Positions 7,446-52,749 of a DNA stretch of 64,000 bases are shown here, piece by piece (the stretch's first letter is position 1; each line of letters begins with the position of its first letter). The notes under the pieces were generated by a model. The model was not told where the DNA came from and did not search any database. It saw only the letters and a list, made by a program, of their open reading frames with translations. The stretch comes from a virus. Its lineage: Duplodnaviria > Heunggongvirae > Uroviricota > Caudoviricetes. The stretch lies in IMG/VR virus record IMGVR_UViG_3300029590_000324; one strand, written 5' to 3'. A program made the translations under genes and the position numbers.

Positions 7446-8045
7446 ATGGCTAACATTTGCTCTACACAGATAAGATTTTTTGGAAATGATGATGCACTTA
7501 CGGATTTTTTCAACAGGATCGAGCACGCTATTTCAGATGAAGCACACCCTGATATGAGCTACTGCGAAAGACGCAGCTTCCGCAACATCGCCAATGAATT
7601 CGGAATCGATCCTGATAAGGTTTCATTAAGAGGAGATATCGAATATGACAGGGATTGCGCAACAATATATACTGAAACCGCATGGACGCCTCGCCTTGGT
7701 ATATGGAGTGCGATAATTGCAAAATGCTATACCAAAGATGACGAGCAGCTCATTTCATTCAGCTGGTGCGCCGAGGAGTTCGGCTGCGATATCTACTGCA
7801 CAAACGACATGAATGAATTTGGCGACATGGCTTATTGTATTGACTATAATATAGGCAGCGATGCAGATTACCTCTACGGCGCCACAGAAGAAGAGGTGCT
7901 CAAAGAGGTTAACAGAGTTTTTGAAAAAGCAGGACTTGAGCCTGTCAAGTCTCTTGCGGAAGCGGAAGTGGCAGTTGAGGTCAATGAAGACTGGTTTATG
8001 TCAGTTCACAAGCTTGAACTGTTTGATACCTGCGATTTTGATTAA
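7446..8045 (+). CDS. hypothetical protein, paralogue family member A (199 aa)
   Basis: Shares CSTxIxFxGN, FxDLTD and ETAW[TR]P motifs with ORF 8592-9245. Confidence 0.55.
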   Translation: MANICSTQIRFFGNDDALTDFFNRIEHAISDEAHPDMSYCERRSFRNIANEFGIDPDKVSLRGDIEYDRDCATIYTETAWTPRLGIWSAIIAKCYTKDDEQLISFSWCAEEFGCDIYCTNDMNEFGDMAYCIDYNIGSDADYLYGATEEEVLKEVNRVFEKAGLEPVKSLAEAEVAVEVNEDWFMSVHKLELFDTCDFD

Positions 8046-8162
8046 GGAGGAGTTTGTAATGGGTAATTGGAAATACATTCTCAGAAGCGGCGGTAAGCTC
8101 AGAGTAAAGATAAACAGCGACGATAAGTTTGGTAAATTGTAATTTGAAAAGGAGATTTTATT

Positions 8163-8396
8163 ATGGATAACGCAAAGCTTAATGGTATGATAAAAGAATT
8201 CTATGACTGCTTTAACAGAGCGCAGGAGTTGAGACGTGCAGTTTTGGAATATATAGAAGAGACGCTCGATATTGATACTAACGAAAACTACGACTACTTT
8301 GAGGATGACAGCGATTTCTGTTTCGGCCTTGACTTAGAGACGATCGACGCTCTGGAAAACGGAGATGAGGATCTGATCAACGAACTTCGCAACTGA
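8163..8396 (+). CDS. acidic hypothetical protein (77 aa)
   Basis: AAGGAGA RBS. Confidence 0.45.
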   Translation: MDNAKLNGMIKEFYDCFNRAQELRRAVLEYIEETLDIDTNENYDYFEDDSDFCFGLDLETIDALENGDEDLINELRN

Positions 8397-8412
8397 AAAA
8401 GGAGATGTAGAT

Positions 8413-8577
8413 ATGAAAGCAGTAAATATTATGTGGGACACTGACGGAGACAAAAAGCTTTTTGAAGAATTGCCCTCAGAAATTGAAATTCCCGACGACG
8501 TTGACGAAGAAGATATCGGGGATTATATCTCAGACCTAATTGGATTTTGCCATTTTGGGTACGACCTCGAAGATTGA
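8413..8577 (+). CDS. small acidic hypothetical protein (54 aa)
   Basis: Translated by hand; AAAGGAGATG RBS. Confidence 0.35.
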   Translation: MKAVNIMWDTDGDKKLFEELPSEIEIPDDVDEEDIGDYISDLIGFCHFGYDLED

Positions 8578-15550: not shown

Positions 15551-15573
15551 TTCTATGAAAGGAGAACTTGTCA

Positions 15574-15984
15574 ATGAATGTTAAAACAGGAGATGTAATT
15601 AGAATAACACTGCCAAACGCTATCGGGCATCAGCAGGGCGGAGAAAGATATGCCGTCGTTGTTTCAAACAACATTGGAAATAAAGTTTCTCCTACAGTAG
15701 AGGTTCTTCCGGGAACTACAAAAAGAGATGACAGCACTCTTCCAACTCATGCACACTTTAAAGCCGGAGAAATTCAAGGACTGCCAAGAAATACGACTTT
15801 TGAAGCCGAAAGCCAATGGGTCATTAACAAATTTCAGATAATTGAAATTGTTGGGCATCTGAGCGATAAACAGCTTGAAAGAATTGCGACAGCCATGATA
15901 ATGGCGACTCCTCTTGTCTTAAAAGCTTTTGAGAGCAATGTGCATAAGACTCAGCGCTTTCAGAAAATCCTGAATTTCTCTTGA
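15574..15984 (+). CDS. mazF: MazF/PemK/EndoA-family endoribonuclease toxin
   Basis: VKTGDVIRITLPNAIGHQQGGERYAVVVSNNIGNKVSPT...LPTHAHF aligns closely with B. subtilis EndoA [39 protein letters not shown]...LPTHVEI; AAAGGAG RBS. Confidence 0.8.
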   Translation: MNVKTGDVIRITLPNAIGHQQGGERYAVVVSNNIGNKVSPTVEVLPGTTKRDDSTLPTHAHFKAGEIQGLPRNTTFEAESQWVINKFQIIEIVGHLSDKQLERIATAMIMATPLVLKAFESNVHKTQRFQKILNFS

Positions 15985-18532: not shown

Positions 18533-18608
18533 GAGTCATTAGCTCAGTCGGTAGAGCAGTAGTCTTTTAAACTATTGGTCTGGGGTTCAAATCCCCAATG
18601 GCTCACCA
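18533..18608 (+). tRNA. tRNA-Lys (anticodon TTT)
   Basis: Cloverleaf folded by hand: acceptor GAGTCAT/ATGGCTC, D arm GCTC..GAGC, anticodon stem GTAGT/ACTAT with loop CTTTTAA, T arm TGGGGTTCAAATCCCCA, encoded CCA. Confidence 0.75.
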
Positions 18609-18690
18609 AATATATGTTTTTTATACTATTATTCATTGGTGCGAAAACATATTGGATATTTTACAATTTAAAAATTAAGGAGGAGTCATC

Positions 18691-19347
18691 ATGACCAACG
18701 AAAAAATGACAATCACAAAGGCACTTTCCGAGCTGAAGGTGCTCGGTAACAGAATCACAGCAGAGATTCGCAGTGCGACATTCTGTAACGTAAGCAAGCA
18801 TACAATGCGCACGCTAAACGGCAAAAATATCACTGACGTAAAGGCAGAGATGCAGGGCAGCTATGATAAAATAGTCGCTCTCATCAACAGGAATAATGCC
18901 ATCAAGAAAGCAGTGAATAAGGCAAACGCTTCCACAATCGTATCTATCGGTGGAGAGCAAATGACTGTCGCCGAAGCTATTTATATGAAGCAGACGGGTA
19001 TTGATTATATGAAGGCTCTGCTCAATACCATGACAACTCAATATACAAATACACAGAGCCTGCTCCAGAATAATAATGGAGAAAAGTTAACAAGGGCTTG
19101 TGAGGCCTATATCGTTAGCCTTTATGGAACAAACAGCAGCAATAACACTATTTCCAGCGAAATGGTGGAGACCATAAATGCGGCAAGAGCGAAATATATT
19201 GATGAGAATACTTTTGATCTCATCGAAGGTATTGATACAAAAAAAGCAATCGAAGATCTGAAGAATAAGATCGACGCTTTCGAAGCTGAGGTGGATGCAG
19301 CCATTACAGTGGCAAATGCAACCACCGAAATTGAAATCAGTTACTGA
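18691..19347 (+). CDS. hypothetical protein (218 aa)
   Basis: AAGGAGGAG RBS; perfect hairpin TGATTAAgTTAATCA directly at the stop codon. Confidence 0.55.
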   Translation: MTNEKMTITKALSELKVLGNRITAEIRSATFCNVSKHTMRTLNGKNITDVKAEMQGSYDKIVALINRNNAIKKAVNKANASTIVSIGGEQMTVAEAIYMKQTGIDYMKALLNTMTTQYTNTQSLLQNNNGEKLTRACEAYIVSLYGTNSSNNTISSEMVETINAARAKYIDENTFDLIEGIDTKKAIEDLKNKIDAFEAEVDAAITVANATTEIEISY

Positions 19348-19504
19348 TTAAGTTAATCATCCATCGTCAACCGAAAATACTTAACTGGTTTCAACTGAAC
19401 ATCAACAGTCTAAAATGATGAACAAAACAATTTGAAACTGCAAAAGCTTTCAAATGCTAAAGATATTATTCAGATAAGAATATCGAGTATTTATGATGTT
19501 TTCG

Positions 19505-19680
19505 GGCAGAGTTTAAAGTTCGAATAATAGCTGAAAGTTTAAAATTCAAAGCTTAATTGTTTTAAACATTAAAGTTCAGAATTTATGGTAGCAGACGTGC
19601 GTACTTGATGGCAGACTTGCTGCACTTCAAAGTTCAAATTGTAAATTGTAAATCATAAAGTTCATAGAAATCCCCGATAT
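19505..19680. repeat. five direct copies of AAAGTTCA(R)AAT-like motif in a non-coding AT-rich region
   Basis: TTAAAGTTCGAATAAT, GAAAGTTTAAAATTCAAAG, TTAAAGTTCAGAATTTAT, TTCAAAGTTCAAATTG, ATAAAGTTCATAGAAAT; also GCAGAC(G/T)TGC repeated twice. Confidence 0.5.
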
Positions 19681-19819
19681 AGGTTAAAGCGGCGAATCCA
19701 TCGGCTGTGTGTGATCCTCGGGGCTGGTTGATGGTGGATAAACATTTATATACCCCCTACGATGGCAAGCTCCTCTTAGCGTTGAAGATCTCATGTGCAG
19801 TACGTCAAGCTGCACGAAT

Positions 19820-19915
19820 GCAACAATAAGCCTAATTTGGTAAGGCAGGAGGTTGCTAACCTCTGAGTAATCATCGTATGATGGTGTTCGAGTTCGAGTC
19901 TCGGTTGTTGCGCCA
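19820..19915 (+). tRNA. tRNA-Ser (anticodon GCT), class II with long variable arm
   Basis: Acceptor GCAACAA/TTGTTGC perfect; 3-bp D stem; anticodon stem GGAGG/CCTCT with loop TTGCTAA; 23-nt variable arm; T arm TCGAG-TTCGAGT-CTCGG; discriminator G; encoded CCA. Confidence 0.7.
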
Positions 19916-20106
19916 ACGGAATTAGTGTAATTAAAAAAAATAAATAATTGGTAAAATGAAATCTGAAGCGAACCACTGTGCAAGTACCTTTATTCATGAG
20001 ATTGGGGAAAAGTAGTAGCAAAGAGCCAATTACATAACGCCGGTCTTCCACCCCGGAATTGTTGGTTATACTCCAATCACTAAATCCTTTTTTATTTATT
20101 ATTTGA

Positions 20107-20182
20107 TGGGATATCGCCAAGAGGGAAGGCAGTAGATTTTGACTCTACCATTCCGTGTGTTCGAATCACACTATCCCAACCA
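20107..20182 (+). tRNA. tRNA-Gln (anticodon TTG)
   Basis: Acceptor TGGGATA/TATCCCA (U1-A72); anticodon stem GTAGA/TCTAC with loop TTTTGAC; T arm GTGTG-TTCGAAT-CACAC; encoded CCA. Confidence 0.65.
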
Positions 20183-20931
20183 ATATCCATACCCTCTTAG
20201 TCAAGGAGTTAAGACGTCGTTAAAACGAAGGCATTGGGTGCAAATCCCGTAGATGGATATGGATACAACAATAAAGCACCCTACACCTTAACATAATCTC
20301 GGAGCAGTACGCATAATCGAAGGTCGGTCAGGGTGCATATATGAGCCGTTGCTTGGGGTAAGTACCCGAGCGGCTCACCAATGATACCGATAAGCAGATG
20401 CAGACTGAAGCTTGTAGGTGAAAACTCAGTGGCCAAGGTCATCTGTGCTGCATAACAGATGATAGCAAGGGGTAAAACGTGGCGGAGATTATCTTAGTGT
20501 CACCCTTGTAACTGTAAAATCCACATCAGCTTGCGGTATGGCGATATAGCTGTCTGAGTGGTTGAGGTTCGGACATTACCGATTCCGATATAAGACCGCA
20601 CGGGTGCTCCGCTGCCCATTATGATTTAAACGCGGCCTTTAGTTCCTGATAAGATCGACTCCCTGACGAGGGATAGGTCTGGCAAGTTTAAATACAGCTT
20701 CGGCTTATTGGAGACGCCTACGGGTGCAGAAGCCAGAACTCACAAGATAACGTTAAAACAGAAATGTGAAAAACAGGTTTTGCAGGGGTTCCTTAATACC
20801 GCCGTATAGAGGGTGTGATGAGCAAGGATCCAGCTCGTTGCGCAACATAAGAAATGTTGTCACGCCGTAAGACCCGAATCGGCAGATGTCGAAGCTGGAC
20901 ATCGTGGCAGCCCGGAAAGACGGGCACATAA

Positions 20932-21008
20932 CTCCCAGTAGTCCAGAGGCAGGAGACAAGGGACTTAAAATCCCTACAGGATGGGTTCGAATCCCATCTG
21001 GGAGACCA
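20932..21008 (+). tRNA. tRNA with anticodon TAA (Leu by anticodon) but class I architecture with a short variable loop
   Basis: Acceptor CTCCCAG/CTGGGAG; anticodon stem AGGGA/TCCCT with loop CTTAAAA; 5-nt variable loop; T arm ATGGG-TTCGAAT-CCCAT; discriminator A; encoded CCA. Confidence 0.6.
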
Positions 21009-21012
21009 ACAT

Positions 21013-21095
21013 GCGGGTGTGGTGAAATTGGCAGACACGATAGACTTAGGATCTATTGCGCAAGCGTGCAGGTTCAAGTCCTGTCACCCGCACCA
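21013..21095 (+). tRNA. tRNA-Leu (anticodon TAG), long variable arm
   Basis: Acceptor GCGGGTG/CACCCGC; anticodon stem ATAGA/TCTAT with loop CTTAGGA; variable hairpin TGCGCAAGCGTG; T arm GCAGG-TTCAAGT-CCTGT; discriminator A; encoded CCA. Confidence 0.7.
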
Positions 21096-21142
21096 GATGT
21101 TAATAATAGCTAACGTCAGTTGCTATATTATTAACGAAATAT

Positions 21143-21227
21143 GCGAGAGTGCTGGAATAGGCAGACAGAGCAGTCTCAAAAACTGCTGCAAGAATGCGTG
21201 TGGGTTCGAAGCCCATCTCTCGTACCA
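21143..21227 (+). tRNA. tRNA-Leu (anticodon CAA), long variable arm
   Basis: Acceptor GCGAGAG/CTCTCGT; anticodon stem GCAGT/ACTGC with loop CTCAAAA; long variable arm; T arm GTGGG-TTCGAAG-CCCAT; discriminator A; encoded CCA. Confidence 0.7.
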
Positions 21228-21289: not shown

Positions 21290-22600
21290 CCAGCCGCAAT
21301 CCCATTGGCTTTAGACGATGGGTTAAGCTCGCTGTGATATAACAGTGATGTAGAAAGGCGGTAACAAACCAATGTTTAAATCATTCAAATATAGGCTTTA
21401 TCCAAATAAAACACAAGAAATACAAATTCAGAAAACATTCGGTTGTTGTAGATTTGTTTATAATCAGACGCTTGCTTATAGGAAAAATCTTTATGAAGCA
21501 GAAAAGAAATCTATAAACAAGATAGGTTGTAACAACTATGTTAATCAAGTTCTTAAAAAAGAATATGAATGGCTTAAAGAGGTAGACAAATTTGCTCTTA
21601 CTAATTCTGTTTATAATATGGATAGCGCATATCAGAAATTTTTCAAAGAACATTCTGGTTATCCTAAATTCAAAAGTAAGAAGAATAATCATAAATCTTA
21701 TTCTACTAACAGTACAAACAACAACATAGAGGTTGATTTCGAGAAGAACAGAATTAAGCTTCCAAAACTTAAATGGGTAAAAGCAAAAGTTCATAGAGTA
21801 TTTGTTGGTATAATTAAATCTGCAACTTTATCTCAAACGCCAAGTGGCAAGTATTTTATTTCTATTCTTGTAAATTGTGAGAATTTTCAGATGAAGTCTA
21901 CTGGTGCTATGGTTGGTATTGATTTAGGTATCAAGGATTTAGTCATCACATCTGATGGTGAAAAGTTTGAAAACTCCAAAACTCTTTACAAGTATGAAAA
22001 GAAACTTGTAAAGGAGCAAAGAAAACTTGCTAAAAAGACAAAGGGTAGCAATAATAGGAACAAACAGCGTATTAAAGTCGCAAGACTGTATGAGAAGATA
22101 ACAAATATCCGTGTTGATAATTTGCATAAAATTTCTCACAAACTAATTCAGGAAAACCAACTGATAGTGAGTGAGGACTTAAAAATTAGCAATATGGTTA
22201 AAAATCATAATCTTGCAAAGAGTATTTCTGATTGTAGTTGGTATGAACTTACAAGGCAGTTACAGTACAAGGTTCACTGGAATGGTAGACAGTATATCAA
22301 GATTGATACTTACTTTCCAAGTAGTCAGACTTGTAGTGTATGTGGGTATATTAATAAGGAAACTAAGGATTTATCTGTAAGAGAGTGGACTTGTCCTTGT
22401 TGTAATACACGTCACGACAGAGATATAAACGCTGCTATAAATATTTTGTATGAAGGATTAAGGCTGATTAAATCAGCCTAAATAATAATGTAGTACGGTA
22501 GGAACTATCGGAATTTACGCTTGTGAAGTTAGTAGGTTACGAGGACGATGAAGCAAGAAGCCGACTGGCTTTAGACGGTCGGTAGTTCACAAGCAGTATT
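21290..22600 (+). mobile_element. IS200/IS605-family element carrying only tnpB (IS1341-like), with subterminal hairpins
   Basis: Left hairpin CCCATTGGCTTTAGACGATGGG (21301-21322) and right hairpin CCGACTGGCTTTAGACGGTCGG (22561-22582) share the loop TGGCTTTAGACG and flank the tnpB ORF; boundaries approximate. Confidence 0.5.
21372..22481 (+). CDS. tnpB: TnpB (IS605 OrfB-family RNA-guided nuclease-like transposase accessory protein)
   Basis: N-terminal [16 protein letters not shown] typical of OrfB; C-terminal RuvC-like region with zinc finger CSVCGY..CPCCN; 369 aa. Confidence 0.8.
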
Positions 22601-22822: not shown

Positions 22823-23131
22823 ATGACAAATAATTATAATGCTTCGAATTATGCCAAAGGCTCCGATGGTGCAAAGCTGAATGACGAAAATCTTAAGGAA
22901 ATGAATGCTTCCGGTAAGTGTAATACTTGTAAATATTTTCAGTTCAGAGGTTACAAATGTACGAAGAAGACTGAGGAAGGCAATTTTGTTCGTTCTGCCA
23001 TGATGCCAATTACATATACCGAAACAACTTCAAAGGGCAATTTTATCAACGTGTTAAAGCCCTCTTCTTGCAAGGATTATGAGAGTAAGGGTAAGCGCAA
23101 GATTGAAAAGACAGAGGAGGCGGCCGAATGA
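22823..23131 (+). CDS. Cys-containing hypothetical protein (102 aa)
   Basis: ORF after the IS right end; weak RBS. Confidence 0.4.
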   Translation: MTNNYNASNYAKGSDGAKLNDENLKEMNASGKCNTCKYFQFRGYKCTKKTEEGNFVRSAMMPITYTETTSKGNFINVLKPSSCKDYESKGKRKIEKTEEAAE

Positions 23132-23700
23132 AACTTCTCGTAGTGGTTGATATGCAGAATGACTTTATCGATGGGTCTCTCGGTTCTGATGCAGCACAGG
23201 CAATCGTTCCTAATGTAGTTGAAAAAATCAAATCTGCTGATAAAAACACGGCAATTTTATTCACAAAAGATACTCATTATAACGATTATGCTGAAACTCT
23301 TGAGGGGAGAAAACTTCCTGTTCAGCACTGTCTCGCTCGTTCTTTCGGCTGGATGATAAATGATGATGTCGCTGACGCATGGTATCACTCCAATACATAT
23401 GCAATATTGGAGCCCGAAGTCAGAGAAGGGAACATCGTTCTTAAGAACACATTTGGCAGTACCCAGCTTATGAGTTTACTTATTCGTGAAGGTAAAATGT
23501 TCGACGAAATTGAATTTATCGGGCTGGACACCGATATCTGTGTTGTATCCAATGCCCTCATGGTGAGAGCTGCACTTCCTGATATGCCAATCGTTGTTGA
23601 CGCCTCCTGTTGTGCCGGATCAACACCTGAAAAGCATAAGGCGGCACTCGAAGTTATGAAGAGCTGTCAGATTGATATCATAAACGAGAGCGAGGTATAA
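23128..23700 (+). CDS. pncA: nicotinamidase (isochorismatase family)
   Basis: VVVDMQNDF (catalytic Asp), TKDTH..PVQHCL (metal-binding His pattern as in PncA WPxHCV), GLDTDICV (catalytic Cys). Confidence 0.7.
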   Translation: MKLLVVVDMQNDFIDGSLGSDAAQAIVPNVVEKIKSADKNTAILFTKDTHYNDYAETLEGRKLPVQHCLARSFGWMINDDVADAWYHSNTYAILEPEVREGNIVLKNTFGSTQLMSLLIREGKMFDEIEFIGLDTDICVVSNALMVRAALPDMPIVVDASCCAGSTPEKHKAALEVMKSCQIDIINESEV

Positions 23701-23702
23701 CT

Positions 23703-24527
23703 ATGATTTACATAAATAATGCACCTTTTGGAGATAAAAGTTTTCCTAATGGTGAAACCATTTTTGATATGGGAACTTATTATGTCAAGGATGCAGTAAA
23801 TGAAATCAAGCTTGTATATGAATCGGACGCTGATATCTTTAAGCTCATTGTGGCCAAGAAGTGTCTTGATGAACAGTCAAAGGAAAACAGAGTTGATTAC
23901 GGTTGGGATGAAGCAATCATAACTCTGACCATTGCATATATGCCATATTCAAGAATGGATAGGCAGATGTCTTCAATGGCGTTCAGCCTCAGATATGTTG
24001 CCGATATCATCAATTCTCTTAATTTTGATTCGGTAACAATACTTACACCTCACTCCAATGTAACTCCGGCACTTATTAACAATGTCAGAACCATATACGA
24101 TATCGGCGTTAATGAGGCATATAAATACAGTTCCCCCGATTACGTATTCTATCCCGACAACGGAGCCTGCAAGTCGTTTGGAGAACATCTCAAATATACT
24201 AATTACTTTTACGGTAACAAGAAGCGTGAGCTTTCAACCGGAAAGATTGAAAAGTATGAGCTGGTTAATGCCCCCGATATTAAGGACAAAAACATTCTGA
24301 TAATCGATGACCTTTGTGTTAAGGGCGGCACATTTATTCTTGCAGCTCAGGCTCTTAAAGCGGCAGGTGCAGCCAAGGTAGATTTGTTTGTAACTCATCT
24401 TGAAAAGGCTGTGTATAAAGGAATACTGCTCACGACAGACTGGATTGATCATATCTATACAGTCAATACACTGGAAATCCCCATTGAAAACGACAAAATA
24501 ACAGAAATAAGAGGTAATTTCATATGA
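23703..24527 (+). CDS. ribose-phosphate pyrophosphokinase (Prs)-family protein; candidate ADP-ribose pyrophosphokinase (Adps-like)
   Basis: IAYMPYSRMDRQ resembles Prs IPYFGYARQDRR; PRPP-binding loop IIDDLCVKGGT resembles VLVDDMIDTAGT; stop overlaps the NAMPT-like gene start. Confidence 0.6.
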   Translation: MIYINNAPFGDKSFPNGETIFDMGTYYVKDAVNEIKLVYESDADIFKLIVAKKCLDEQSKENRVDYGWDEAIITLTIAYMPYSRMDRQMSSMAFSLRYVADIINSLNFDSVTILTPHSNVTPALINNVRTIYDIGVNEAYKYSSPDYVFYPDNGACKSFGEHLKYTNYFYGNKKRELSTGKIEKYELVNAPDIKDKNILIIDDLCVKGGTFILAAQALKAAGAAKVDLFVTHLEKAVYKGILLTTDWIDHIYTVNTLEIPIENDKITEIRGNFI

Positions 24528-25990
24528 ATGAAATAATGCCAATGCTTCTTTGTGATTTTTACAAAGAGTGTATGATGGTTCAGCAGAGCCCTAAGCTCAC
24601 TAAGCTCGTATCCTATATGACACCAAGAATGTCCAGAGTACACGATGACAAACTCGTCTTCTTCGGACTTCAGGCGTTTATCGAGAAGTATCTTGTGGAA
24701 TATTTCAATAACGAATTTTTCAATAAGCCTGTCGATGAGGTCTGCGCCGAGTATGAAAGAGTTCTCGGCAGCACTCTCGGCAAGGGTACATATGATACCG
24801 CAAAAATCAGAGCTCTTCACGAGCTGGGCTATTTGCCTGTTAAGATATCGGCACTTCCCGAGGGAACCCGTGTCCCCATGCACGTTCCTATGCTGGAAAT
24901 AAGCAGCACACACCCTGATTTTATATGGGTCGGACAGTTCCTTGAAAGTCTTATGAGTGCTTCACTCTGGCATCCAATGGTGTCTGCAAATGTGGGTTAT
25001 TGGTATCGTCAGATCGTTGATAAGTTCTACGACATCAGCGTTGAAGATGACGTGCCCAGAGCCAAGGCTCTCGGAGACTTTTCATTCAGAGGTCAGCATA
25101 GTCTTGAAAGTGCGACTGCCTCTTCTGCCGGTTGGTGTACTTCGTTTCTGAATACAGCGACAGTACCCGCAATTCCTTGGCTGGAAAAATATTATCACTG
25201 CGATTGTACCAAGGAGCCCGTAGCTTACGGGGCGGTATCAACCGAACATTCAGTGATGACCAGCAACTTCTCTATCGACGGCGATGAGATTACATTTCTC
25301 CGTAAGCTGCTGACTGAGCTTTATCCCAATAACAGTTTCAGTGTAGTATGCGATTCTTATGATTACTGGAATGTAGTCAATAATATTTTGCCTCAGCTAA
25401 AGCCTGAAATTATGGCTCACAACGGCTGTATGCTGATAAGAGGGGACAGCGGAGACCCTGTTGAGATAGTGACCGAAACTGTGTTTGCACTCTGGGAAGA
25501 ATTCGGCGGAACAGTCAACAGCAAGGGTTATAAGGTACTCGACCCTCACGTTAAGGCGATTTACGGGGACAGTATCACCGTTCAGCGCTGTCAGCAGATA
25601 TACCAGAGGCTCATTGACAACGGTTTTGCCTGCAATAATGTAATCCTCGGTGTCGGCAGCTTCTCAATGATGTGCGTTGAAGAGGACAATATGCTCAAGC
25701 CTTTTACCCGTGATACATATTCAATAGCTATTAAGGCGACTTATGGTGAGGTAGATGGTAAGCCCATAATGATTTTTAAGAATCCCAAGACAGATACGGG
25801 ATTCAAGAAGTCCCAGAAGGGTATGTGCTTTATCTATAAAGAGCACGGCGAGATAAAGTATCAGGACGGCTTTACAGCTGAGACAGTTCCTGTCAATGGC
25901 TTGTTCCGCACAGTGTTCGAGGATGGTAAATGCTATAATACTCAGACGCTTGCTGACGTTCGTAATACGCTTTACGAAGGAGGATTCTGA
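24524..25990 (+). CDS. nicotinamide phosphoribosyltransferase (NAMPT/NadV) family enzyme; candidate Namat-like
   Basis: Several blocks align with human NAMPT: ALPEGTRVP~AVPEGFVIP, LGDFSFRGQHSLESA~LHDFGYRGVSSQETA, SVVCDSYDYWN~SVVSDSYDIYN, LIRGDSGDP~IIRPDSGNP, NSKGYKVLDPHVKAIYGDSI~[20 protein letters not shown]. Confidence 0.85.
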   Translation: MNEIMPMLLCDFYKECMMVQQSPKLTKLVSYMTPRMSRVHDDKLVFFGLQAFIEKYLVEYFNNEFFNKPVDEVCAEYERVLGSTLGKGTYDTAKIRALHELGYLPVKISALPEGTRVPMHVPMLEISSTHPDFIWVGQFLESLMSASLWHPMVSANVGYWYRQIVDKFYDISVEDDVPRAKALGDFSFRGQHSLESATASSAGWCTSFLNTATVPAIPWLEKYYHCDCTKEPVAYGAVSTEHSVMTSNFSIDGDEITFLRKLLTELYPNNSFSVVCDSYDYWNVVNNILPQLKPEIMAHNGCMLIRGDSGDPVEIVTETVFALWEEFGGTVNSKGYKVLDPHVKAIYGDSITVQRCQQIYQRLIDNGFACNNVILGVGSFSMMCVEEDNMLKPFTRDTYSIAIKATYGEVDGKPIMIFKNPKTDTGFKKSQKGMCFIYKEHGEIKYQDGFTAETVPVNGLFRTVFEDGKCYNTQTLADVRNTLYEGGF

Positions 25991-26418
25991 TGACACCAAC
26001 AGTAAAAGAAGACGATGCTTTCGTAGATGGTTTTCTGTATAAGCGTCTCAGAGATGCCTACGTGGAGCATGACCGCTTGATAATTGCATATGACCTTGAC
26101 GATACAGTGAGGCCATATAAAAGCGAATGCTGTGATCACACGAAGAACTTGATACGCAAAGCAAAAGCGGTTTTGAACCCCTATTTCATCGTGTTTACAG
26201 CCAATCCTCACAACGAAAAGAATATCCAGTTTCTTCATGATGAGAACCTTCCATTCGATACTATCAACGAGAATATCCCGGAAATTGGCAGATATGGAGA
26301 CGGTTTGAAGATATATTATAACCTATTTCTTGATGATAAGGCCGGACTTTTCGAGGCTTGTAATGCCCTGGCAACACTTTGTTGGCAAGTGGAAATGGGA
26401 TATGTAAATAAGGAGTGA
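25990..26418 (+). CDS. HAD-superfamily phosphatase-like protein (142 aa)
   Basis: Motif I IAYDLDDTV (DxDxT); sits within the NAD module. Confidence 0.45.
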   Translation: MTPTVKEDDAFVDGFLYKRLRDAYVEHDRLIIAYDLDDTVRPYKSECCDHTKNLIRKAKAVLNPYFIVFTANPHNEKNIQFLHDENLPFDTINENIPEIGRYGDGLKIYYNLFLDDKAGLFEACNALATLCWQVEMGYVNKE

Positions 26419-26422
26419 TATT

Positions 26423-26797
26423 ATGGCACAAATTGGAATCAGAAACAGTTGTAAAACAGTCAAATTAAAAAATATACCAGTCGGAAATTTATTTATGAAG
26501 AATGGTTCTTACTATATCAATACTGATATGAGCTTAGCAATGAGAAAGCGTATTCTTGAACTTACTGGTGTTGATATAATGATTGACGGGAAGACATTTA
26601 AGTCAACATACCAGATAATGCTCGAGATAGCTGACAAGTGGTCTGAACTTTCTGACGTCGACAGGACTGCATTGCTTGAAATGAATGGCATTACTAAGCG
26701 TTCTTGTGTTGTCAATCTTCAATCTGGGATAGCTTCCTATATGAGTGATGACGAAATCGTAATAAAAATCAATAATTCTATAACTTTGGACGAATGA
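26423..26797 (+). CDS. hypothetical protein (124 aa)
   Basis: ORF within the NAD module; no known motif. Confidence 0.45.
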   Translation: MAQIGIRNSCKTVKLKNIPVGNLFMKNGSYYINTDMSLAMRKRILELTGVDIMIDGKTFKSTYQIMLEIADKWSELSDVDRTALLEMNGITKRSCVVNLQSGIASYMSDDEIVIKINNSITLDE

Positions 26798-26809
26798 GGA
26801 GAAATTAAG

Positions 26810-27625
26810 ATGAATGATTTTAATGCAAAGAAGATAACTTCCAAGATTATCAACTGGATCCGTTGGTACTTTGACAAGAACGGCGATGAGAACACAACTG
26901 CCGTCGTCGGTGTTTCGGGCGGCAAGGATAGTTCGGTAGTGCTTAAGCTGTGTGTTGAAGCACTTGGTCCCGAGAGAGTAATCGCAGTGCTGCTCCCCAG
27001 AGGCGAACAGAATGATATCAGATATTCTTATACAGCTTATACTGTATGCGGAATTCCTGATACGAATATTTATGAAATTAACATCAATAAAATATGCGAG
27101 GCATTTGATTTCAAACTGTTTAGCTATAGTCGTCTGCCTCAAACATGTGATCAAAGAAACATTGATTGCATGAAAACCAACTATCCTGCAAGAATTCGTA
27201 TGACTGTTCTTTATGGCATAGCTGCTCTTAGGGGCGGCAGAGTAGCCAATACCTGCAATCTCAGTGAAGATTGGGTCGGCTACGCAACCAAGTTCGGTGA
27301 TGGTGCAGGTGATTTCAGTCCTCTCCACGATTTTACAGTACAGGAAGTTAAGGCAATCGGCAGAGAGCTTGGGCTTCCCAGCTGTCTGATCGATAAGGTG
27401 CCTACCGACGGTCTCTGCGGTAAGACTGATGAGGAGAATCTCGGATTTACATATGAGACACTCGATAAGTATATCCGTACAGGCGAATGTGACGAAGACA
27501 CAAAGAAGATTATAGACGGAAAGCATTATGCAAATCTTCATAAGCTGAAGCCTATGCCTAAGTTCAGATACAGACCCGATCTTGACGGAAAGGCGGAGAA
27601 GAACAATGAAGTCACATCAGATTGA
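26810..27625 (+). CDS. nadE: NH3-dependent NAD+ synthetase
   Basis: PP-loop VVGVSGGKDSSVV; 271 aa, typical NadE length; GAGGAG RBS. Confidence 0.7.
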   Translation: MNDFNAKKITSKIINWIRWYFDKNGDENTTAVVGVSGGKDSSVVLKLCVEALGPERVIAVLLPRGEQNDIRYSYTAYTVCGIPDTNIYEININKICEAFDFKLFSYSRLPQTCDQRNIDCMKTNYPARIRMTVLYGIAALRGGRVANTCNLSEDWVGYATKFGDGAGDFSPLHDFTVQEVKAIGRELGLPSCLIDKVPTDGLCGKTDEENLGFTYETLDKYIRTGECDEDTKKIIDGKHYANLHKLKPMPKFRYRPDLDGKAEKNNEVTSD

Positions 27626-34891: not shown

Positions 34892-34902
34892 GGAGTGGTT
34901 TG

Positions 34903-37900
34903 ATGCAAAATTATCACAAACACACAAGTTGCTCCAATATTTTCATAGCAGATTCAGCCGCTTCTTTGAAAGAATATGCCAAACGTGCTGTTGAACTTGG
35001 ACATAAAGTTATTTCATCGGTAGAACATTATTGGCAAGGGTATTATTATGAAGCATACGAGCTTGCCAAAGAATATGATTTAAAGTTCATTTTCGGAGCA
35101 GAAGCTGGCTGGGTCAAGGATAGAACATCGAATGATCGTACAAGATGTCATATTATTCTGTTGGCACGAAATGAAAATGGAAGACGAGCAATCAACGACA
35201 TTTTATCTGAAGCCAACTTAACAGGATATTATTATGTTCCACGTATTGACATTGATTTGCTTTTATCTTTACCACCTAAAGATGTGTTTGTTACATCTGC
35301 CTGTATTGCTTTTTGGAAATATGATGATGTCGACGATATTGTTCTGAAGCTTTATAATCATTTTAAGGATAATTTTATGCTTGAAGTTCAATATCATAAT
35401 ACTGAAAAACAAGCACAATTAAATAAACATATTCTCGAATTATCTGAACAATATGGAATAAAAATGATTGCTGGGCTTGACAGTCATTACATACTTGAAA
35501 GCGATGCCTGGAAGCGTGAAGATATATTAACAGCTAAAGGAATTCATTACGAAGATGAAGATGGATGGTATATGGATTATCCTGATGATAAAACCGTTAT
35601 GGACAGGTTTCTTGCTCAGAACGTGCTTACACGAGAGCAAATTCAAGAAGCGATGGATAATACTGATATTCTTCTTACGTTCGACGATATCATTTTGAAT
35701 GATGACATTAAACTGCCGTCGGCTTATCCGGATAAAACTCAAGATGAAAAGAATAAAATCTATAGCAGATTAATAACAAAACAATTCAAAGAATATATGA
35801 AAGCAATTCCTCAATCTGAATACCAGACTTATTTTGAAGGGGTCAAGCATGAGGTTGATGTATATAAGAATACAGGAATGGTCGATTATCCAATGCTCGA
35901 TTATAAAATTGTCCAAAGGGCAATTGAAAAAGGCGGGGTAATCACTGCGACCGGCAGAGGTTCCGGAGTAAGTTTTTTTACAAATACTCTTTGTGGATTT
36001 TCAAAACTTGATAGATTTAAAAGCCCTGTTAAACTTTATCCTGAAAGATTTATGTCCGAAACTCGTATTCTTCAGACCAGATCTCTTCCAGATCTTGATT
36101 TAAACGTATCGGATCCTGAAATATTTGCTGAAGCTCAGAATGAAGTCTTAACTGAAATATATGGAACTCCGGGGCACGCATATCCTATGATTGCCTTTGG
36201 AACAGCCAAAAAGAAATCAGCCTTTAAACTTTATGCACGAGCGCAGAATATGAATTTTGACCTTGCAAATGAAATCTCTAAACAAATAGATGCGTATGAA
36301 GAAGCTTATAAAATAGCTGACGATGATGAAAAGGATGACATAAATATTTATGATTATGTCGATGAGCAGTACCATCAGTATATAACCAATAGCCAAGAAT
36401 ATTGGGGCATTATTATGGATAAGAAAAAAGCTCCTTGCGGATATCTTCTTTATGCTGGCGACATCAGAAAAGAGATTGGACTTATTAAATGTAAGAGCGA
36501 ATCGACTAAGAAAGAGTATATTACCGCTGTAATTGACGGTGCAATAGCTGAGCATTATAAATTTCTCAAAAACGATTTGCTGAAAGTCGATGTTGTTTTA
36601 CTTATTGACAAAATATATAAACGTATCGGGATTAAGCAACATACTGTAAATGAGCTTGATGATATCGTAAGAGATAATCAAAAGGTGTGGGATATCTATG
36701 CGAAAGGCTTAACGATTGGTGTTAATCAAATCGAAAAGGCAAGCACAGCTAAAAAGATGATGAAGTATAAGGCGACTAATGTTTCGGAGCTTTGTGCTTT
36801 TATAGCTGCTATACGCCCCGGTTTCAAATCAATGTATTCTACATTTGAAAGAAGGGAACATTTCGAATATGGCATTGCTGCGATTGACAAACTTATTCAA
36901 ACACCACAGTTTCCAGAGTCTTTTATTTTATATCAAGAAATGCAGATGAGTATTCTGAACTATGCTGGTTTTCCTATGGACGAATGCTATGGTATCATTA
37001 AAGCAATTGCAAAAAAGCATCCAGAAAAAGTCAAGCCTTTGAAGAGTAAATTTGTTGATGGAATAAAAAATCGTATCATTGAAGAAGAACATATGACCGA
37101 AACAGAAGCTGAAGAAAAGAGTTTGCAAATATGGCAGATTATCTCAGATAGTTGTCGCTATAGCTTTAATGCTTCTCATTCGCTCAGTATGGCGTATGAT
37201 TCTTTGTATTGTGCATATTTAAAAGCCTATTATCCTTACGAATTTTATGAAGTGCTCCTTGAAGAATTTTCAGGAAAAGGCAAAAAAGATAAGGTTTCTA
37301 CTTTAAAAGCTGAAATGCTTAAAGGTTTCAATATTCGAGAAGGTGAATATAAATTCGGATTAGACAACAGACGATTCGTTGCAGACCCCGAAAATGGAGT
37401 GATCAATCCTTCGCTTGTTTCAATTAAGAATTTAAGTCAGAATTTAGCAGAGAGCCTATATGATTTTGCTCAAGGCAATACATTCGATAATTATTATTCT
37501 CTATGGAAAGCTTTAAAAGAAGCAAAAATAATAAGTTCTGATCAGCTTGAAATTTTAATTCAATTAGATTATTTTAAAGATTTCGGATCAATCGTAAAGA
37601 TTGAAAAATTTATGAATGCTGTTAAAGAACTCTATGGCAGGGCTTCATTCAAAAAAGCAAACCTTCCGATAGAATATGAAGAGATCATTGCAAAATATTC
37701 TAAAGAAACCGACAAGACATATAGCAAATTCAACTATGATTTAGCGTTAAAAGAAATCTGGAAGACTATTCCCGACAATAAGACGCCGTTATCTACGAGA
37801 ATATCATATGAAAATGTCCGTCTCGGATATATCAAATCAACAATGCCCAAGCTGAGTGATAATTATTATGCAATATCTGATATCAATATGAAATATGCAA

Positions 37901-38115
37901 ACAAGACAATAACAGCATATCGTCTTAATAATGGAGAACTTATTACGATGAAAATCAAAGCCAAAGTATTTGATGCAAATCCACTTAATCAATATGATAT
38001 CATCAAAGCTATTGATATTTCCGAAGAACCCAAGTGGGGTAAAACTCCCGAGGGTGAATGGTATCGTAAGGAAGAAACAGAACTTATTCTCAAAAAATGG
38101 GCGAATGTGAGGTGA
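34903..38115 (+). CDS. dnaE: DNA polymerase III alpha subunit (DnaE-type)
   Basis: N-terminal PHP domain (YHKHTSCSN..EHYWQ); ~1070 aa; AGGAG RBS. Confidence 0.8.
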   Translation: MQNYHKHTSCSNIFIADSAASLKEYAKRAVELGHKVISSVEHYWQGYYYEAYELAKEYDLKFIFGAEAGWVKDRTSNDRTRCHIILLARNENGRRAINDILSEANLTGYYYVPRIDIDLLLSLPPKDVFVTSACIAFWKYDDVDDIVLKLYNHFKDNFMLEVQYHNTEKQAQLNKHILELSEQYGIKMIAGLDSHYILESDAWKREDILTAKGIHYEDEDGWYMDYPDDKTVMDRFLAQNVLTREQIQEAMDNTDILLTFDDIILNDDIKLPSAYPDKTQDEKNKIYSRLITKQFKEYMKAIPQSEYQTYFEGVKHEVDVYKNTGMVDYPMLDYKIVQRAIEKGGVITATGRGSGVSFFTNTLCGFSKLDRFKSPVKLYPERFMSETRILQTRSLPDLDLNVSDPEIFAEAQNEVLTEIYGTPGHAYPMIAFGTAKKKSAFKLYARAQNMNFDLANEISKQIDAYEEAYKIADDDEKDDINIYDYVDEQYHQYITNSQEYWGIIMDKKKAPCGYLLYAGDIRKEIGLIKCKSESTKKEYITAVIDGAIAEHYKFLKNDLLKVDVVLLIDKIYKRIGIKQHTVNELDDIVRDNQKVWDIYAKGLTIGVNQIEKASTAKKMMKYKATNVSELCAFIAAIRPGFKSMYSTFERREHFEYGIAAIDKLIQTPQFPESFILYQEMQMSILNYAGFPMDECYGIIKAIAKKHPEKVKPLKSKFVDGIKNRIIEEEHMTETEAEEKSLQIWQIISDSCRYSFNASHSLSMAYDSLYCAYLKAYYPYEFYEVLLEEFSGKGKKDKVSTLKAEMLKGFNIREGEYKFGLDNRRFVADPENGVINPSLVSIKNLSQNLAESLYDFAQGNTFDNYYSLWKALKEAKIISSDQLEILIQLDYFKDFGSIVKIEKFMNAVKELYGRASFKKANLPIEYEEIIAKYSKETDKTYSKFNYDLALKEIWKTIPDNKTPLSTRISYENVRLGYIKSTMPKLSDNYYAISDINMKYANKTITAYRLNNGELITMKIKAKVFDANPLNQYDIIKAIDISEEPKWGKTPEGEWYRKEETELILKKWANVR

Positions 38116-38689: not shown

Positions 38690-39991
38690 ATGGACAAGGT
38701 ATTTGACATATTTAAAAAGCTGCAATCAACTACTAAGCGCAACGAAAAAATTCAGATCCTTAAAGAGAACCAAGATAACACTTTGTTCCAGACGACTCTG
38801 AAATGGCTCCTTAATCCGTTTGAAATCACGGGTATCAGCACAAAAAAACTCAATAAACAAGTTCCATATAACACCTCTCCTATTCAGACTTGGAGAGATA
38901 TGATGGTGTACTTGTCCGAAAACAATACCGGTAAAGACACGGATATTGCTATCGTGCAAGGATTTATTGAAAGCCAGCCCGAGAAATATCGGGATTATTA
39001 TAAGCAGCTTATTACTAAATCACTAAAGCTTGGAATAGATGCGAAAACGGTAAATAGCGTTTATGGGAAAAATTTTGTACCCGTATTTGATTTGCAGCTT
39101 GCAGAAAAGTATTTTGAAAAGCCCCAAAAGATAATGGGTGATTTTACCCTTACCGAAAAACTTGACGGATATAGATTAGCAGCAATTATACATAATGACA
39201 AGGTTGAATTTTATTCTCGTCAAGGACAGCCTGTCGAGGGGCTTATCGAAGTCGAAACAGATTTGTCGCAATTTTGTAAAGAGGAGAAGATACATAATGC
39301 TTTTTTCGATGGTGAGCTTGTCGCTATAAACTGCGAAGAACTTACTTCTGCTGAGAACTACAAGATAGTAACTACTACGGCAAGAAAGAAAGGCATTAAA
39401 ACCGGTCTCAAATATATGGTGTTCGATACACTTAGGTATGAAGATTTCATTAAACAGACCTGCGACATAGAATACTGGAAGCGCAGAGCGTTACTTGAGA
39501 AGATATTTGAGGATAACAAGTTTGCCCATGTGCGTCTCTTGCCCGTTTTGTATCAGGGTTCTGATAAGGAAATGATAACTGAATATCTGAACAAAGCCCG
39601 TGATAAGAGCAAAGAAGGAATTATGATCAACCTTAACGAGGGCAAGTACGATTTTAAAAGAACATATAACTTGCTCAAAGTAAAGGTAATGCAAGATGCT
39701 GATCTCAGAATTATAGATGTTTACGAAGGCATAGGTGAAAACACAGGTAAGCTTGGTGGAGTTGTCGTTGAATTTATATATCAGGACAAGCATTATGTTT
39801 GTGGCTGCGGCAGTGGTTTTAACGAAAAAGAACGTGTGGAATATTGGAAACACCCCGAATTGATAGTAAGCAAGATCGCTACGATATCGTATTTTGAAAT
39901 TACTAAGAACGATGAGGGCGGATATGGTCTGAGGTTCGCCATTTGGACACATCGTATCAGAGACGACAAAACAGAAATAAGTATGAATTAA
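38690..39991 (+). CDS. ATP-dependent DNA ligase
   Basis: Motif I KLDGYR; 433 aa with a C-terminal OB-like region. Confidence 0.75.
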   Translation: MDKVFDIFKKLQSTTKRNEKIQILKENQDNTLFQTTLKWLLNPFEITGISTKKLNKQVPYNTSPIQTWRDMMVYLSENNTGKDTDIAIVQGFIESQPEKYRDYYKQLITKSLKLGIDAKTVNSVYGKNFVPVFDLQLAEKYFEKPQKIMGDFTLTEKLDGYRLAAIIHNDKVEFYSRQGQPVEGLIEVETDLSQFCKEEKIHNAFFDGELVAINCEELTSAENYKIVTTTARKKGIKTGLKYMVFDTLRYEDFIKQTCDIEYWKRRALLEKIFEDNKFAHVRLLPVLYQGSDKEMITEYLNKARDKSKEGIMINLNEGKYDFKRTYNLLKVKVMQDADLRIIDVYEGIGENTGKLGGVVVEFIYQDKHYVCGCGSGFNEKERVEYWKHPELIVSKIATISYFEITKNDEGGYGLRFAIWTHRIRDDKTEISMN

Positions 39992-52161: not shown

Positions 52162-52203
52162 TACAAAGGAGAGCTTTACAAGGTGCAAATAAGGAGGACA
52201 TAT

Positions 52204-52749
52204 ATGGATACAAATTGCTTAGTAGTTAATCTATTCGGTGTTCCCGGCGCAGGCAAAAGCACTGGAGCAGCTTATATTTTCAGCCAACTCAAAATGGCTG
52301 GCGTAAATGCTGAACTAATTACAGAATTTGCCAAAGACAAAGTGTGGGAAGAAAACCCAACAATATTTCAACCCGATAATCAGATTTACATATTTGGCAA
52401 ACAATTTTATAAAATGAACCGCTGTAAAGATAAGGTCGATGTAATTGTAACCGACTCTCCTTTGCTGTTGTCTTCATTTTACAATTCAAGCAAAATTCTT
52501 GGTAAAGAGTTTGACAAAACCGTATATAATTGCTTCTCTTCATTTAATAACAAAATATATCTGTTAAAGAGAGTAAAGCCCTATAATCCTAAAGGCAGGC
52601 TTCAGACCGAGGAAGAAAGCGATGCTCTTGTAGCTCCATTGATGGAAAAATTGAATTCTTGGAATATCCCATACACTGTTCGCAATGGCGATATCAAAGA
52701 TTATGATGATATCGTAAATGAAGTATTGGAATATTTGAGAAATAACTAA
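52204..52749 (+). CDS. P-loop NTPase / deoxynucleotide-kinase-like protein
   Basis: Walker A GVPGAGKSTGAAY; AAGGAGG RBS. Confidence 0.45.
   Translation: MDTNCLVVNLFGVPGAGKSTGAAYIFSQLKMAGVNAELITEFAKDKVWEENPTIFQPDNQIYIFGKQFYKMNRCKDKVDVIVTDSPLLLSSFYNSSKILGKEFDKTVYNCFSSFNNKIYLLKRVKPYNPKGRLQTEEESDALVAPLMEKLNSWNIPYTVRNGDIKDYDDIVNEVLEYLRNN

Follow-up and report, generated by a model that had tools for sequence, protein, structure and literature searches.

A predicted nicotinate-dependent relative of the NAD+ reconstitution pathway NARP1 in an SPbeta-like gut phage

We analysed a 64,000-nucleotide (nt) stretch of DNA, hereafter the window, from the Caudoviricetes virus record IMGVR_UViG_3300029590_000324. 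Seven open reading frames (ORFs) at 22823-27625, all on the + strand, encode in this order orf102, PncA-like, Prs-like, NAMPT-like and HAD-like proteins, orf124 and NadE. The Prs-like and NAMPT-like genes are an overlapping pair of the lineage of NAD+ reconstitution pathway 1 (NARP1), a pathway made up of Adps and Namat and known from phages SPbetaL1, Bas63 and FADO (Osterman et al., bioRxiv 10.1101/2024.02.11.579819). The transferase of the window lacks the Asp that recognises nicotinamide, and this non-Asp pocket type is co-inherited with a nicotinamidase (PncA) and NadE across a whole clade. With roughly even confidence, we read the operon as a nicotinate-dependent ('deamidated') version of NARP1, in which four enzymes would rebuild NAD+ from ADP-ribose (ADPR) via nicotinic acid and nicotinic acid adenine dinucleotide (NaAD).

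In the proposed pathway, a host NADase defence would split NAD+ into ADPR and nicotinamide. PncA would convert nicotinamide to nicotinic acid and ammonia, and the Adps-type enzyme would convert ADPR and ATP to ADPR pyrophosphate (ADPR-PP). The non-Asp Namat-like transferase would join ADPR-PP and nicotinic acid to give NaAD, and NadE would turn NaAD, ammonia and ATP into NAD+. The ammonia released in the PncA step may be the co-substrate of this NH3-dependent NadE. The HAD protein would most likely remove the phosphate from phosphorylated ADPR and thereby feed the pathway; candidate substrates are ADPR-1''-phosphate from RES-type NADases, the breakdown products of ADPR cyclic phosphate, and 2'-phospho-ADPR. 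The features on which this reading is built are as follows.

23128..23700, + strand: nicotinamidase (PncA-type isochorismatase-fold hydrolase); PF00857 Isochorismatase, E 6e-22, 79 bits
23703..24527, + strand: predicted Adps-type ADP-ribose diphosphokinase (Prs-like); phrog_619 at 1.6e-64
24524..25990, + strand: transferase of the Namat family whose pyridine pocket is of the non-Asp type (N210, A212, S239); PF04095 at 1.8e-27, phrog_448 at 8e-156
25157..25159, + strand: GCG codon of Ala212, which aligns with D215 of SPbetaL1 Namat and D219 of human NAMPT, the Asp that recognises the nicotinamide amide
25990..26418, + strand: minimal cap-less HAD-superfamily phosphatase, Rossmannoid core with D35-x-D37-x-T39, T70, K107 and D115-D116 (HAD motifs I-IV)
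26810..27625, + strand: NadE, NH3-dependent NAD+ synthetase; TIGR00552 at 159 bits (cut-off 63.65), PF02540 at 2e-47

These five genes had been named in a first-pass annotation of the window, and all of them were present on the + strand with exact coordinates and correct domain calls; that annotation overlooked orf102 (22823-23131) and orf124 (26423-26797). The junctions from orf102 to NadE measure -4, +2, -4, -1, +4 and +12 nt, indicating one translationally coupled operon, and the Prs-like and NAMPT-like genes share a 4-nt overlap. The module, with an identical Namat-like protein, was found unchanged on at least 24 contigs from metagenomes, some of them 296-437 kb long, and unrelated phages and bacteria carry the same set of genes at 30-65% identity. 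Therefore, the arrangement is not due to chance.

The Prs-like protein was compared with validated Adps and with housekeeping Prs. In alignments its identity is 39.8% with SPbetaL1 Adps and 35.8% with FADO Adps, compared with 19.6% for E. coli Prs, and its best phage matches include the experimentally validated SPbetaL1 and FADO Adps. It fails every NCBIfam Prs cut-off (TIGR01251, 79 bits vs 113; Prs equivalogs, 26-72 vs 296-536). We located the residues K173, H117, D152, D202 and D203 and a PP loop of the sequence DDLCVKGGTF; the catalytic Lys, K173, aligns with ICP1 K185 and SPbetaL1 K162. A truncated N-terminus, a K-x-R-x-x-x-T-G-x-I beta-hairpin and a DD-x-x-x-x-GGTF PP loop are common to this protein and the validated Adps. 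In the ICP1-type Adps structure, that hairpin and the PP loop make up the remodelled donor site (PMC13586617). Identity, hairpin, PP loop and the failed Prs cut-offs thus place the protein, by sequence, in the Adps lineage and not with housekeeping Prs.

The NAMPT-like protein has SPbetaL1 Namat (9W5X/9W5W) as its closest solved structures, at 405 bits, followed by Xanthomonas (Xcc) Nampt at 186 and human NAMPT at about 150; 9W5X and 9W5W are crystal structures of SPbetaL1 Namat (PMC12774641). Its identity is 41-44% with Namats and about 25% with the NadV-type enzymes of RB43 and phiAS4, and it has the GSF motif of the former, not the GGG of the NadV type. In a neighbour-joining tree of 165 sequences it falls inside the Namat superclade. 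Both members of the pair thus lie where the first-pass annotation had proposed, in the Adps/Namat lineage. Its fallback, a plain NadV salvage route lacking an NMNAT, is not borne out, and neither is the grouping that would have contradicted the NARP1 reading, a canonical Prs beside a NadV with an NMNAT elsewhere among the ORFs scanned: the pair is of the Adps/Namat type, with the Prs-like protein on the Adps side. No NMNAT (PF01467), PncB, NadD, Macro, NUDIX, PnuC or NadR was found among the window ORFs scanned, a set of + strand ORFs of at least 80 amino acids (aa) other than the two largest (34900-38115, 55327-57534) and some small ones.

The catalytic core of the transferase is intact (window numbering: D11, Y13, F186, R189, H242, R306, D308, D349, G378, S379, R396 and D397). 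Of the residues through which SPbetaL1 Namat contacts NAD+, D13, Y15, F189, R192, H245, R306, D308, G360, D361, G390, S391, R399 and D400 are kept in the alignment. Three pocket positions differ from SPbetaL1: D215 is Ala212, G213 is Asn210 and A242 is Ser239. The nicotinamide-binding centre of SPbetaL1 Namat consists of F189, D215 and R306, of which the window enzyme keeps the first (as F186) and the last (R306) but not the Asp. In SPbetaL1 Namat, D215 contacts NAD+ and its replacement by Ala causes an 8.1-fold loss of activity with nicotinamide (PMC12774641); in human NAMPT, the equivalent D219 hydrogen-bonds nicotinamide and sets substrate specificity (PMC7096376, PMC9322656). With Ala in place of this Asp and two coupled pocket changes, the protein, which had been called a 'bona fide' NAMPT-family enzyme, is not a Namat of the nicotinamide type. 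A D219S mutant of human NAMPT reportedly accepts nicotinic acid. The His altered at 'AGHLL' (His to Trp) was considered as a lost catalytic His and rejected: the catalytic H247 of human NAMPT belongs to the EHS motif and is retained as H242 in the window enzyme, and the altered residue is another pocket-lining one.

Of the adenine selectivity clamp, R38 (equivalent to the stacking residue R40 of SPbetaL1) and F380 (F392) are present in the window enzyme; in SPbetaL1 Namat, R40 and F392 are dispensable for the reaction with phosphoribosyl pyrophosphate (PRPP) (PMC12774641). The clamp helix has a 9-aa insertion (residues 382-392), reading GSFSMM-CVEEDNMLK-PFTRD where the motif is GS-X-phi-X-phi-X-phi-TRD with aromatics at positions 3 and 7, and the Tyr at position 7 (Y396) aligns with a Pro, followed by Phe394. 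The window enzyme is also without the 'ICGDP...RK' insertion of typical Namats.

We then determined how far this pocket extends, using an exhaustive HMMER search that gave the 150 nearest representatives of 50%-identity clusters. Ninety-five of them carry D215/G213/A242 (SPbetaL1 numbering), and about 52 carry Ala or Ser at 215 with a non-Gly residue at 213 and Ser at 242; the coupling of the three positions is near-perfect. All 150 have the Namat-type GS[FY] motif, not the NadV-type GGG. In the tree, all 58 non-Asp sequences form one pure clade within the Namat group, indicating that the change arose once, and only one member of this clade lacks an aromatic residue at position 392, while most have Arg at position 40. 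By comparison, all 107 Asp-type sequences keep the Asp; among them are validated Namat enzymes, homologues of the NadV type and one bacterial Nampt. Phass-1, which uses an alternative genetic code, has a Namat-like protein about 35% identical to that of the window; an independent, convergent origin of its Ala pocket was considered and rejected, as the tree places Phass-1 in the single 58-sequence clade. Many Namat-family representatives (proteins P0204-P0352) have lengths of 550-1100 aa and align with the query in two to five separate stretches, which suggests that they carry inteins or other insertions.

The gene neighbourhoods of the two pocket types were then compared. A nicotinamidase, NadE or both adjoin the transferase gene in 15 of 18 distinct non-Asp loci (the window; L006, L009, L011, L014, L015; MT835544, also L024; Phass-1; L032, L033, L035; L042, L043, L044, L047) and in none of 12 Asp-type loci (SPbetaL1, FADO, wV8, ICP1, PM9, Hakuna, L016, RB43, phiAS4, L045, L046, L048). 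Fisher's test gave p = 1e-5 for this association, a figure that overstates independence, since the non-Asp loci belong to one clade and are not phylogenetically independent. Gene order varies, being Namat-Macro-NadE-PncA in MT835544 and NadE-PncA-Adps-Namat in L043. The order has thus been shuffled between lineages while the content was kept, which points to selection on the gene set. Phass-1 has exactly PncA, Adps, Namat, HAD and NadE; the paper describing it lists the nicotinamidase without comment. Neither NMNAT nor NadD was found in 14 of the 15 PncA/NadE-associated modules, the exception being L006.

The nicotinamidase, HAD phosphatase and NadE were rightly seen as embedded with the pair. 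A reading of PncA and NadE as loose additions is not supported, since they co-inherit with this pocket type. Rather than NARP1 with extra salvage capacity, the module is more plausibly a NARP1 variant based on nicotinate, and it is common to chromosomal operons of gut Clostridia that are linked to NrtR.

Two of the sister modules carry further genes. In L006 (4584-8445) we found a YqeY-like gene, an NMNAT-like gene (PF01467), a NADAR/Gp30.3 gene and a Macro-domain gene, and in MT835544 a Macro-domain gene at 7848-8474 on the - strand. In L007 (5003-5980) and L008 (5012-5989), a GIY-YIG-like ORF lies directly upstream of the transferase gene.

The two flanking enzymes keep their predicted catalytic residues. 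The closest solved structures for the PncA-like protein are the nicotinamidases 1ILW and 3PL1, with the D, DxH, HC and C motifs aligned. Its predicted triad D8/K106/C138 and metal site D48/H50/H67 align with the motifs of Pyrococcus and M. tuberculosis PncA; the assignment of K106 is less certain, the loop being shortened. The protein scores below the NCBIfam PncA equivalog cut-off (19 vs 174). PncA homologues of 38-52% identity adjoin the transferase in L006, L009, L011, L014, L015, L024, L032, L033, L035 and Phass-1. A PncA homologue occurs in seven of 50,697 phage records, two of which carry the module; the module, nearly missing from databases of cultured phages, is abundant in human-gut metagenomes. 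NadE (271 aa) has the P-loop S36-G-G-K-D-S41 and no CN_hydrolase (glutaminase) domain. Its structural matches are the NH3-dependent NAD synthetases 3FIU and 2E18, of which the Francisella enzyme 3FIU is the best, and NadE homologues lie within the same modules in L014, L024, L032, L033, L043, L044, L047 and Phass-1.

For the HAD phosphatase, a sequence search against the PDB gave no match. A homologue directly follows Namat in Phass-1 and L032, and also follows the Asp-type Namat of Bacillus phage Hakuna, indicating that the HAD gene goes with the core pair rather than with the nicotinate branch; the coordinates in BPS10C suggest the same arrangement, and HAD homologues occur in 54 Bacillus phage records. 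In MT835544, the Macro-domain gene takes the slot of the HAD gene, between Namat and NadE. NARP1-AP of Vibrio phage Gary consists of Adps, the Macro-domain phosphatase Adpp and Namat, and Adpp turns ADPR-1''-phosphate into ADPR (bioRxiv 10.64898/2026.01.28.702374). Given that a Macro protein fills the same slot and that Adpp is known from NARP1-AP, the HAD protein may be a non-homologous analogue of Adpp; by this analogy it probably replaces the Macro phosphatase, and its substrate is a guess. The window operon thus resembles NARP1-AP in having an embedded phosphatase gene and differs in the HAD fold of that phosphatase; neither the operon nor the scanned ORFs of the window showed a Macro domain. 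One protein, P0189, is a HAD homologue joined to a NADAR domain.

Relatives of the transferase also occur on chromosomes, with thousands of sequences about 65% identical in metagenome-assembled genomes (MAGs) of Lachnospiraceae and Ruminococcaceae. One such locus, L033, has the order NrtR, PnuC, NadR, PncA, Adps-like, Namat-like, NadE. L035 and L036 have the order PncA, Adps-like, Namat-like, orf111, glutamine-dependent NadE and then NrtR, among housekeeping genes. The Adps-like proteins of L033 and L035 bear the same Adps signatures as that of the window. In Clostridium acetobutylicum the corresponding operon reads nrtR-pncA-pncB-nadD-nadE, and NrtR has ADPR as its most effective anti-repressor (PMC2330246). 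The window operon is like that of C. acetobutylicum in having pncA first and nadE last and in the logic of nicotinamide to nicotinate to NaAD to NAD+; NrtR also accompanies the chromosomal homologues L033 and L035. The difference is that the Adps-like/Namat-like pair replaces pncB and nadD. Because pncA and nadE bracket the pair where C. acetobutylicum has pncB-nadD, the pair of the gut Clostridia occupies the slot from nicotinic acid to NaAD, and this replacement implies that the ADP-ribosyl part comes from ADPR instead of PRPP plus ATP.

We weighed this reading against other explanations of the operon. A Preiss-Handler salvage based on PRPP would use PncA to supply nicotinate, the Prs-like protein to supply PRPP, the transferase to form nicotinic acid mononucleotide (NaMN), host NadD to make NaAD and phage NadE to complete NAD+. 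The pocket argument for nicotinate holds equally for this route. The NAMPT-like protein also passes NF006629, 'nicotinate phosphoribosyltransferase' (441 bits vs a cut-off of 405), for which reason public MAG annotations give the whole clade that name; the model is provisional and the name is not assay-based. A validated Namat can use PRPP too, and NrtR-regulated prs-nadV pairs have historically been taken as a PRPP supply (PMC2330246). This route is kept alive by the NMNAT-like gene inside the L006 module together with the clamp helix, which has its insertion and lacks Y396. On the other hand, the Prs-like protein is clearly of the Adps type, and SPbetaL1 Adps, which was assayed on both ADPR and ribose-5-phosphate, was named an ADPR-PP synthetase. 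R40 and F392, irrelevant to PRPP chemistry, are conserved across the clade, with an aromatic residue kept at 392. Neither NadD nor NMNAT turned up among the scanned ORFs of the window or in any module but one, even though NadE is included, and the Macro and NADAR genes of sister modules make sense only for ADPR derivatives. These points favour ADPR-PP over PRPP as the donor, and we consider the PRPP-based route rather unlikely. We regard as highly doubtful the explanation that the operon is canonical NARP1, making NAD+ from ADPR-PP and nicotinamide, with PncA and NadE as a parallel arm through host Preiss-Handler enzymes and with pocket changes that are neutral or tune affinity. It would fit the conserved catalytic core and most of the NAD+-contacting residues, the otherwise typical overlapping Adps/Namat operon, and the fact that the D215A variant of SPbetaL1 Namat keeps some activity with nicotinamide. 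However, the phage nicotinamidase would destroy the substrate of the phage's own Namat, the three coupled substitutions are confined to the clade with PncA and NadE, and the Asp is otherwise invariant.

The remaining explanation concerns role rather than chemistry and would fit either the nicotinate-dependent NARP1 or the PRPP-based route. Here, the operon would be a captured host NAD-salvage operon, a set of auxiliary metabolic genes aiding the lysogen or NAD+ supply with no dedicated counter-defence function. It agrees with the chromosomal homologues in NrtR-, PnuC- and NadR-linked operons of Lachnospiraceae and Ruminococcaceae, with the SPbeta-like, temperate nature of the phage, which has an MrpR recombinase, and with the large contigs on which the protein is found; the DNA ligase is ATP-dependent, which implies no special need of NAD+ for ligation. 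Against it, the same module is present in very different phages, including Phass-1 and contigs with RtcB, RNA ligase and PhoH, where it often adjoins ADPR-processing Macro/NADAR genes typical of counter-defence loci, and it has been demonstrated repeatedly that the NARP1 family overcomes NADase defences (10.1101/2024.02.11.579819). We hold a mere salvage role to be somewhat unlikely.

Several observations count against the nicotinate-dependent version of NARP1. We know of no report of a nicotinate ADP-ribosyl transfer. The clamp-helix insertion, 9-35 aa long, could, together with the missing Y396, make adenine binding weaker and move the enzyme toward PRPP, and the effect of Ala or Ser at 215 might be a relaxed specificity and not a switched one. 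The NMNAT-like gene of L006, which lies between Adps and the transferase, fits a mononucleotide intermediate, and the Francisella enzyme 3FIU, the best structural match of NadE, is said to prefer NaMN. Five other gut-phage contigs (L037-L041) have PncA without Adps or Namat within the flanks, showing that PncA is not exclusive to the module. Conversely, three non-Asp loci (L007, L008, L010-L013) have neither PncA nor NadE within the flanks available; in L010, L012 and L013 the non-Asp enzyme is solitary and its neighbours are uninformative. Finally, the tree is a simple neighbour-joining one and carries no support values.

The window pair is like canonical NARP1 in its overlap, with the Adps-clade gene first and the Namat-clade gene second, and in keeping the catalytic residues and two of the three clamp residues (R40 and F392). 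It differs in the Ala for Asp with the coupled G-to-N and A-to-S changes, in the 9-aa clamp-helix insertion with loss of Y396, in the absent 'ICGDP...RK' stretch, and in the flanking nicotinamidase and NadE, neither of which is required by canonical NARP1 or found with it. NARP2 consists of NadV and NMNAT (Vibrio phage KVP40), and NARP3 of PnuC and NadR (phage Bas30) (PMC13464706). Like the window operon, both are phage-encoded systems for restoring NAD+, and NARP2 also has a NAMPT-family enzyme; unlike them, the window has a transferase only distantly related to the NadV type and lacks NMNAT, PnuC and NadR in the ORFs scanned. NARP3 was ruled out as a related system on its composition. Adps/Namat-like pairs on chromosomes are a further likeness, to the bacterial NARP1 of Paenibacillus foliorum (PMC12774641) and to the gamma-proteobacterial prs-nadV operons regulated by ADPR-released NrtR (PMC2330246). 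The pairs of gut Clostridia belong to the non-Asp type, with pncA and nadE on either side. Judging by its high identity to SPbetaL1, the P. foliorum pair is probably of the Asp type.

In the literature on NARP1, NARP1-AP, NARP2 and NARP3, we found no link of a nicotinamidase, NadE, nicotinate, NaAD or a HAD phosphatase with Adps and Namat. The nicotinate-type relative of NARP1 is well supported by comparative genomics, and its chemistry is predicted. A wider proposal, to which we give slightly less than even credence, is that the operon represents a fourth NAD+ reconstitution route. In it, a Namat-derived 'nicotinate ADP-ribosyltransferase', placed between a nicotinamidase and NadE, would make NaAD from ADPR-PP and nicotinic acid, serving phages in counter-defence and gut Clostridia in a housekeeping recycling of ADPR that is ADPR-inducible through NrtR and bypasses PncB and NadD, and the HAD phosphatase would be a second, non-homologous solution to the task of Adpp. 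NAD+ depletion is among the commonest bacterial anti-phage strategies; NARP1, NARP2, NARP3 and the phosphatase-extended NARP1-AP have been described since 2024, and the present locus points to a further, overlooked variant. If correct, the proposal would add a new enzyme reaction to NAD metabolism and explain the selection of a nicotinamidase that seems self-defeating beside Namat. It would also give a function to the long-puzzling extra 'prs' and 'nadV' of NrtR-linked operons, at least in gut Clostridia, with ADPR as both inducer and substrate. The sequence rule, Asp versus Ala or Ser at the D215 position coupled with 213 and 242, could then be used to re-annotate thousands of proteins named 'nicotinate' or 'nicotinamide phosphoribosyltransferase'.

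The two remaining genes of the operon are small, and neither matched a Pfam, NCBIfam or PHROG family.

22823..23131, + strand: orf102, small Cys-containing protein at the head of the coupled block; 4-nt overlap between its stop and the start of PncA
26423..26797, + strand: orf124, hypervariable, between the HAD gene and NadE

orf102 is kept only in close relatives (L002-L005, L017-L021). orf124 is absent from Phass-1 and L032 and is probably not part of the core pathway. In relatives L002-L005 and L021, orf124 is 29-52% identical to that of the window and NadE 83-86%, whereas the other module genes are 94-100% identical; this divergence of orf124 and NadE indicates, at the sequence level, a recombination mosaic within the operon. 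L018 has a different PncA allele (48% identity) and an extra 220-aa ORF, and in L020 NadE is fused to a downstream ORF (357 aa).

The phage is large, SPbeta-like and temperate, with all genes on the + strand; besides replication genes and a tRNA cluster, it has genes for an MrpR recombinase and a YorH-like protein, and it comes from gut metagenomes. IMG/VR relatives of 142-146 kb exist. A megablast search of the region against the 50,697 phage records of INPHARED gave no match, the phage being absent from that collection, a scan of genome contigs with a single protein returned one locus only, already in the comparison set, and a promoter and terminator scan of the sequence performed no better than on shuffled sequence.

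Other genes of the window were noted in passing. Upstream of the operon, at a distance of 341 nt, lies a TnpB gene of an IS200/IS605-family element (21372-22481, + strand; NF038281, 503 bits). The near-identical relatives L017, L018 and L020 have this gene and L019 and L021 do not, indicating a recent mobile insertion; in L032 and L048, too, a TnpB flanks the related module. A cluster of six tRNA genes (Lys, Ser, Gln and three Leu; 18533-21227) lies just upstream of TnpB and the NAD module, and the Phass-1 module also adjoins a tRNA cluster. A 188-aa P-loop protein (52183-52749, + strand) matches Pfam AAA_28 at 30.2 bits (threshold 27), a family that includes the ribosylnicotinamide-kinase domain of NadR, and may be another NAD-related enzyme of the phage. 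A reverse-transcriptase (RVT_1) ORF (1292-2671, + strand) and a PemK/MazF-type toxin ORF (15568-15984, + strand) may be prophage-carried defence or addiction functions. Finally, a Pnkp-like fusion of an AAA_33 kinase, a metallophosphatase and a T4-type RNA ligase (44209-46407, + strand) suggests tRNA repair against anticodon nucleases, and the DNA ligase (38690-39991, + strand) is ATP- and not NAD-dependent.

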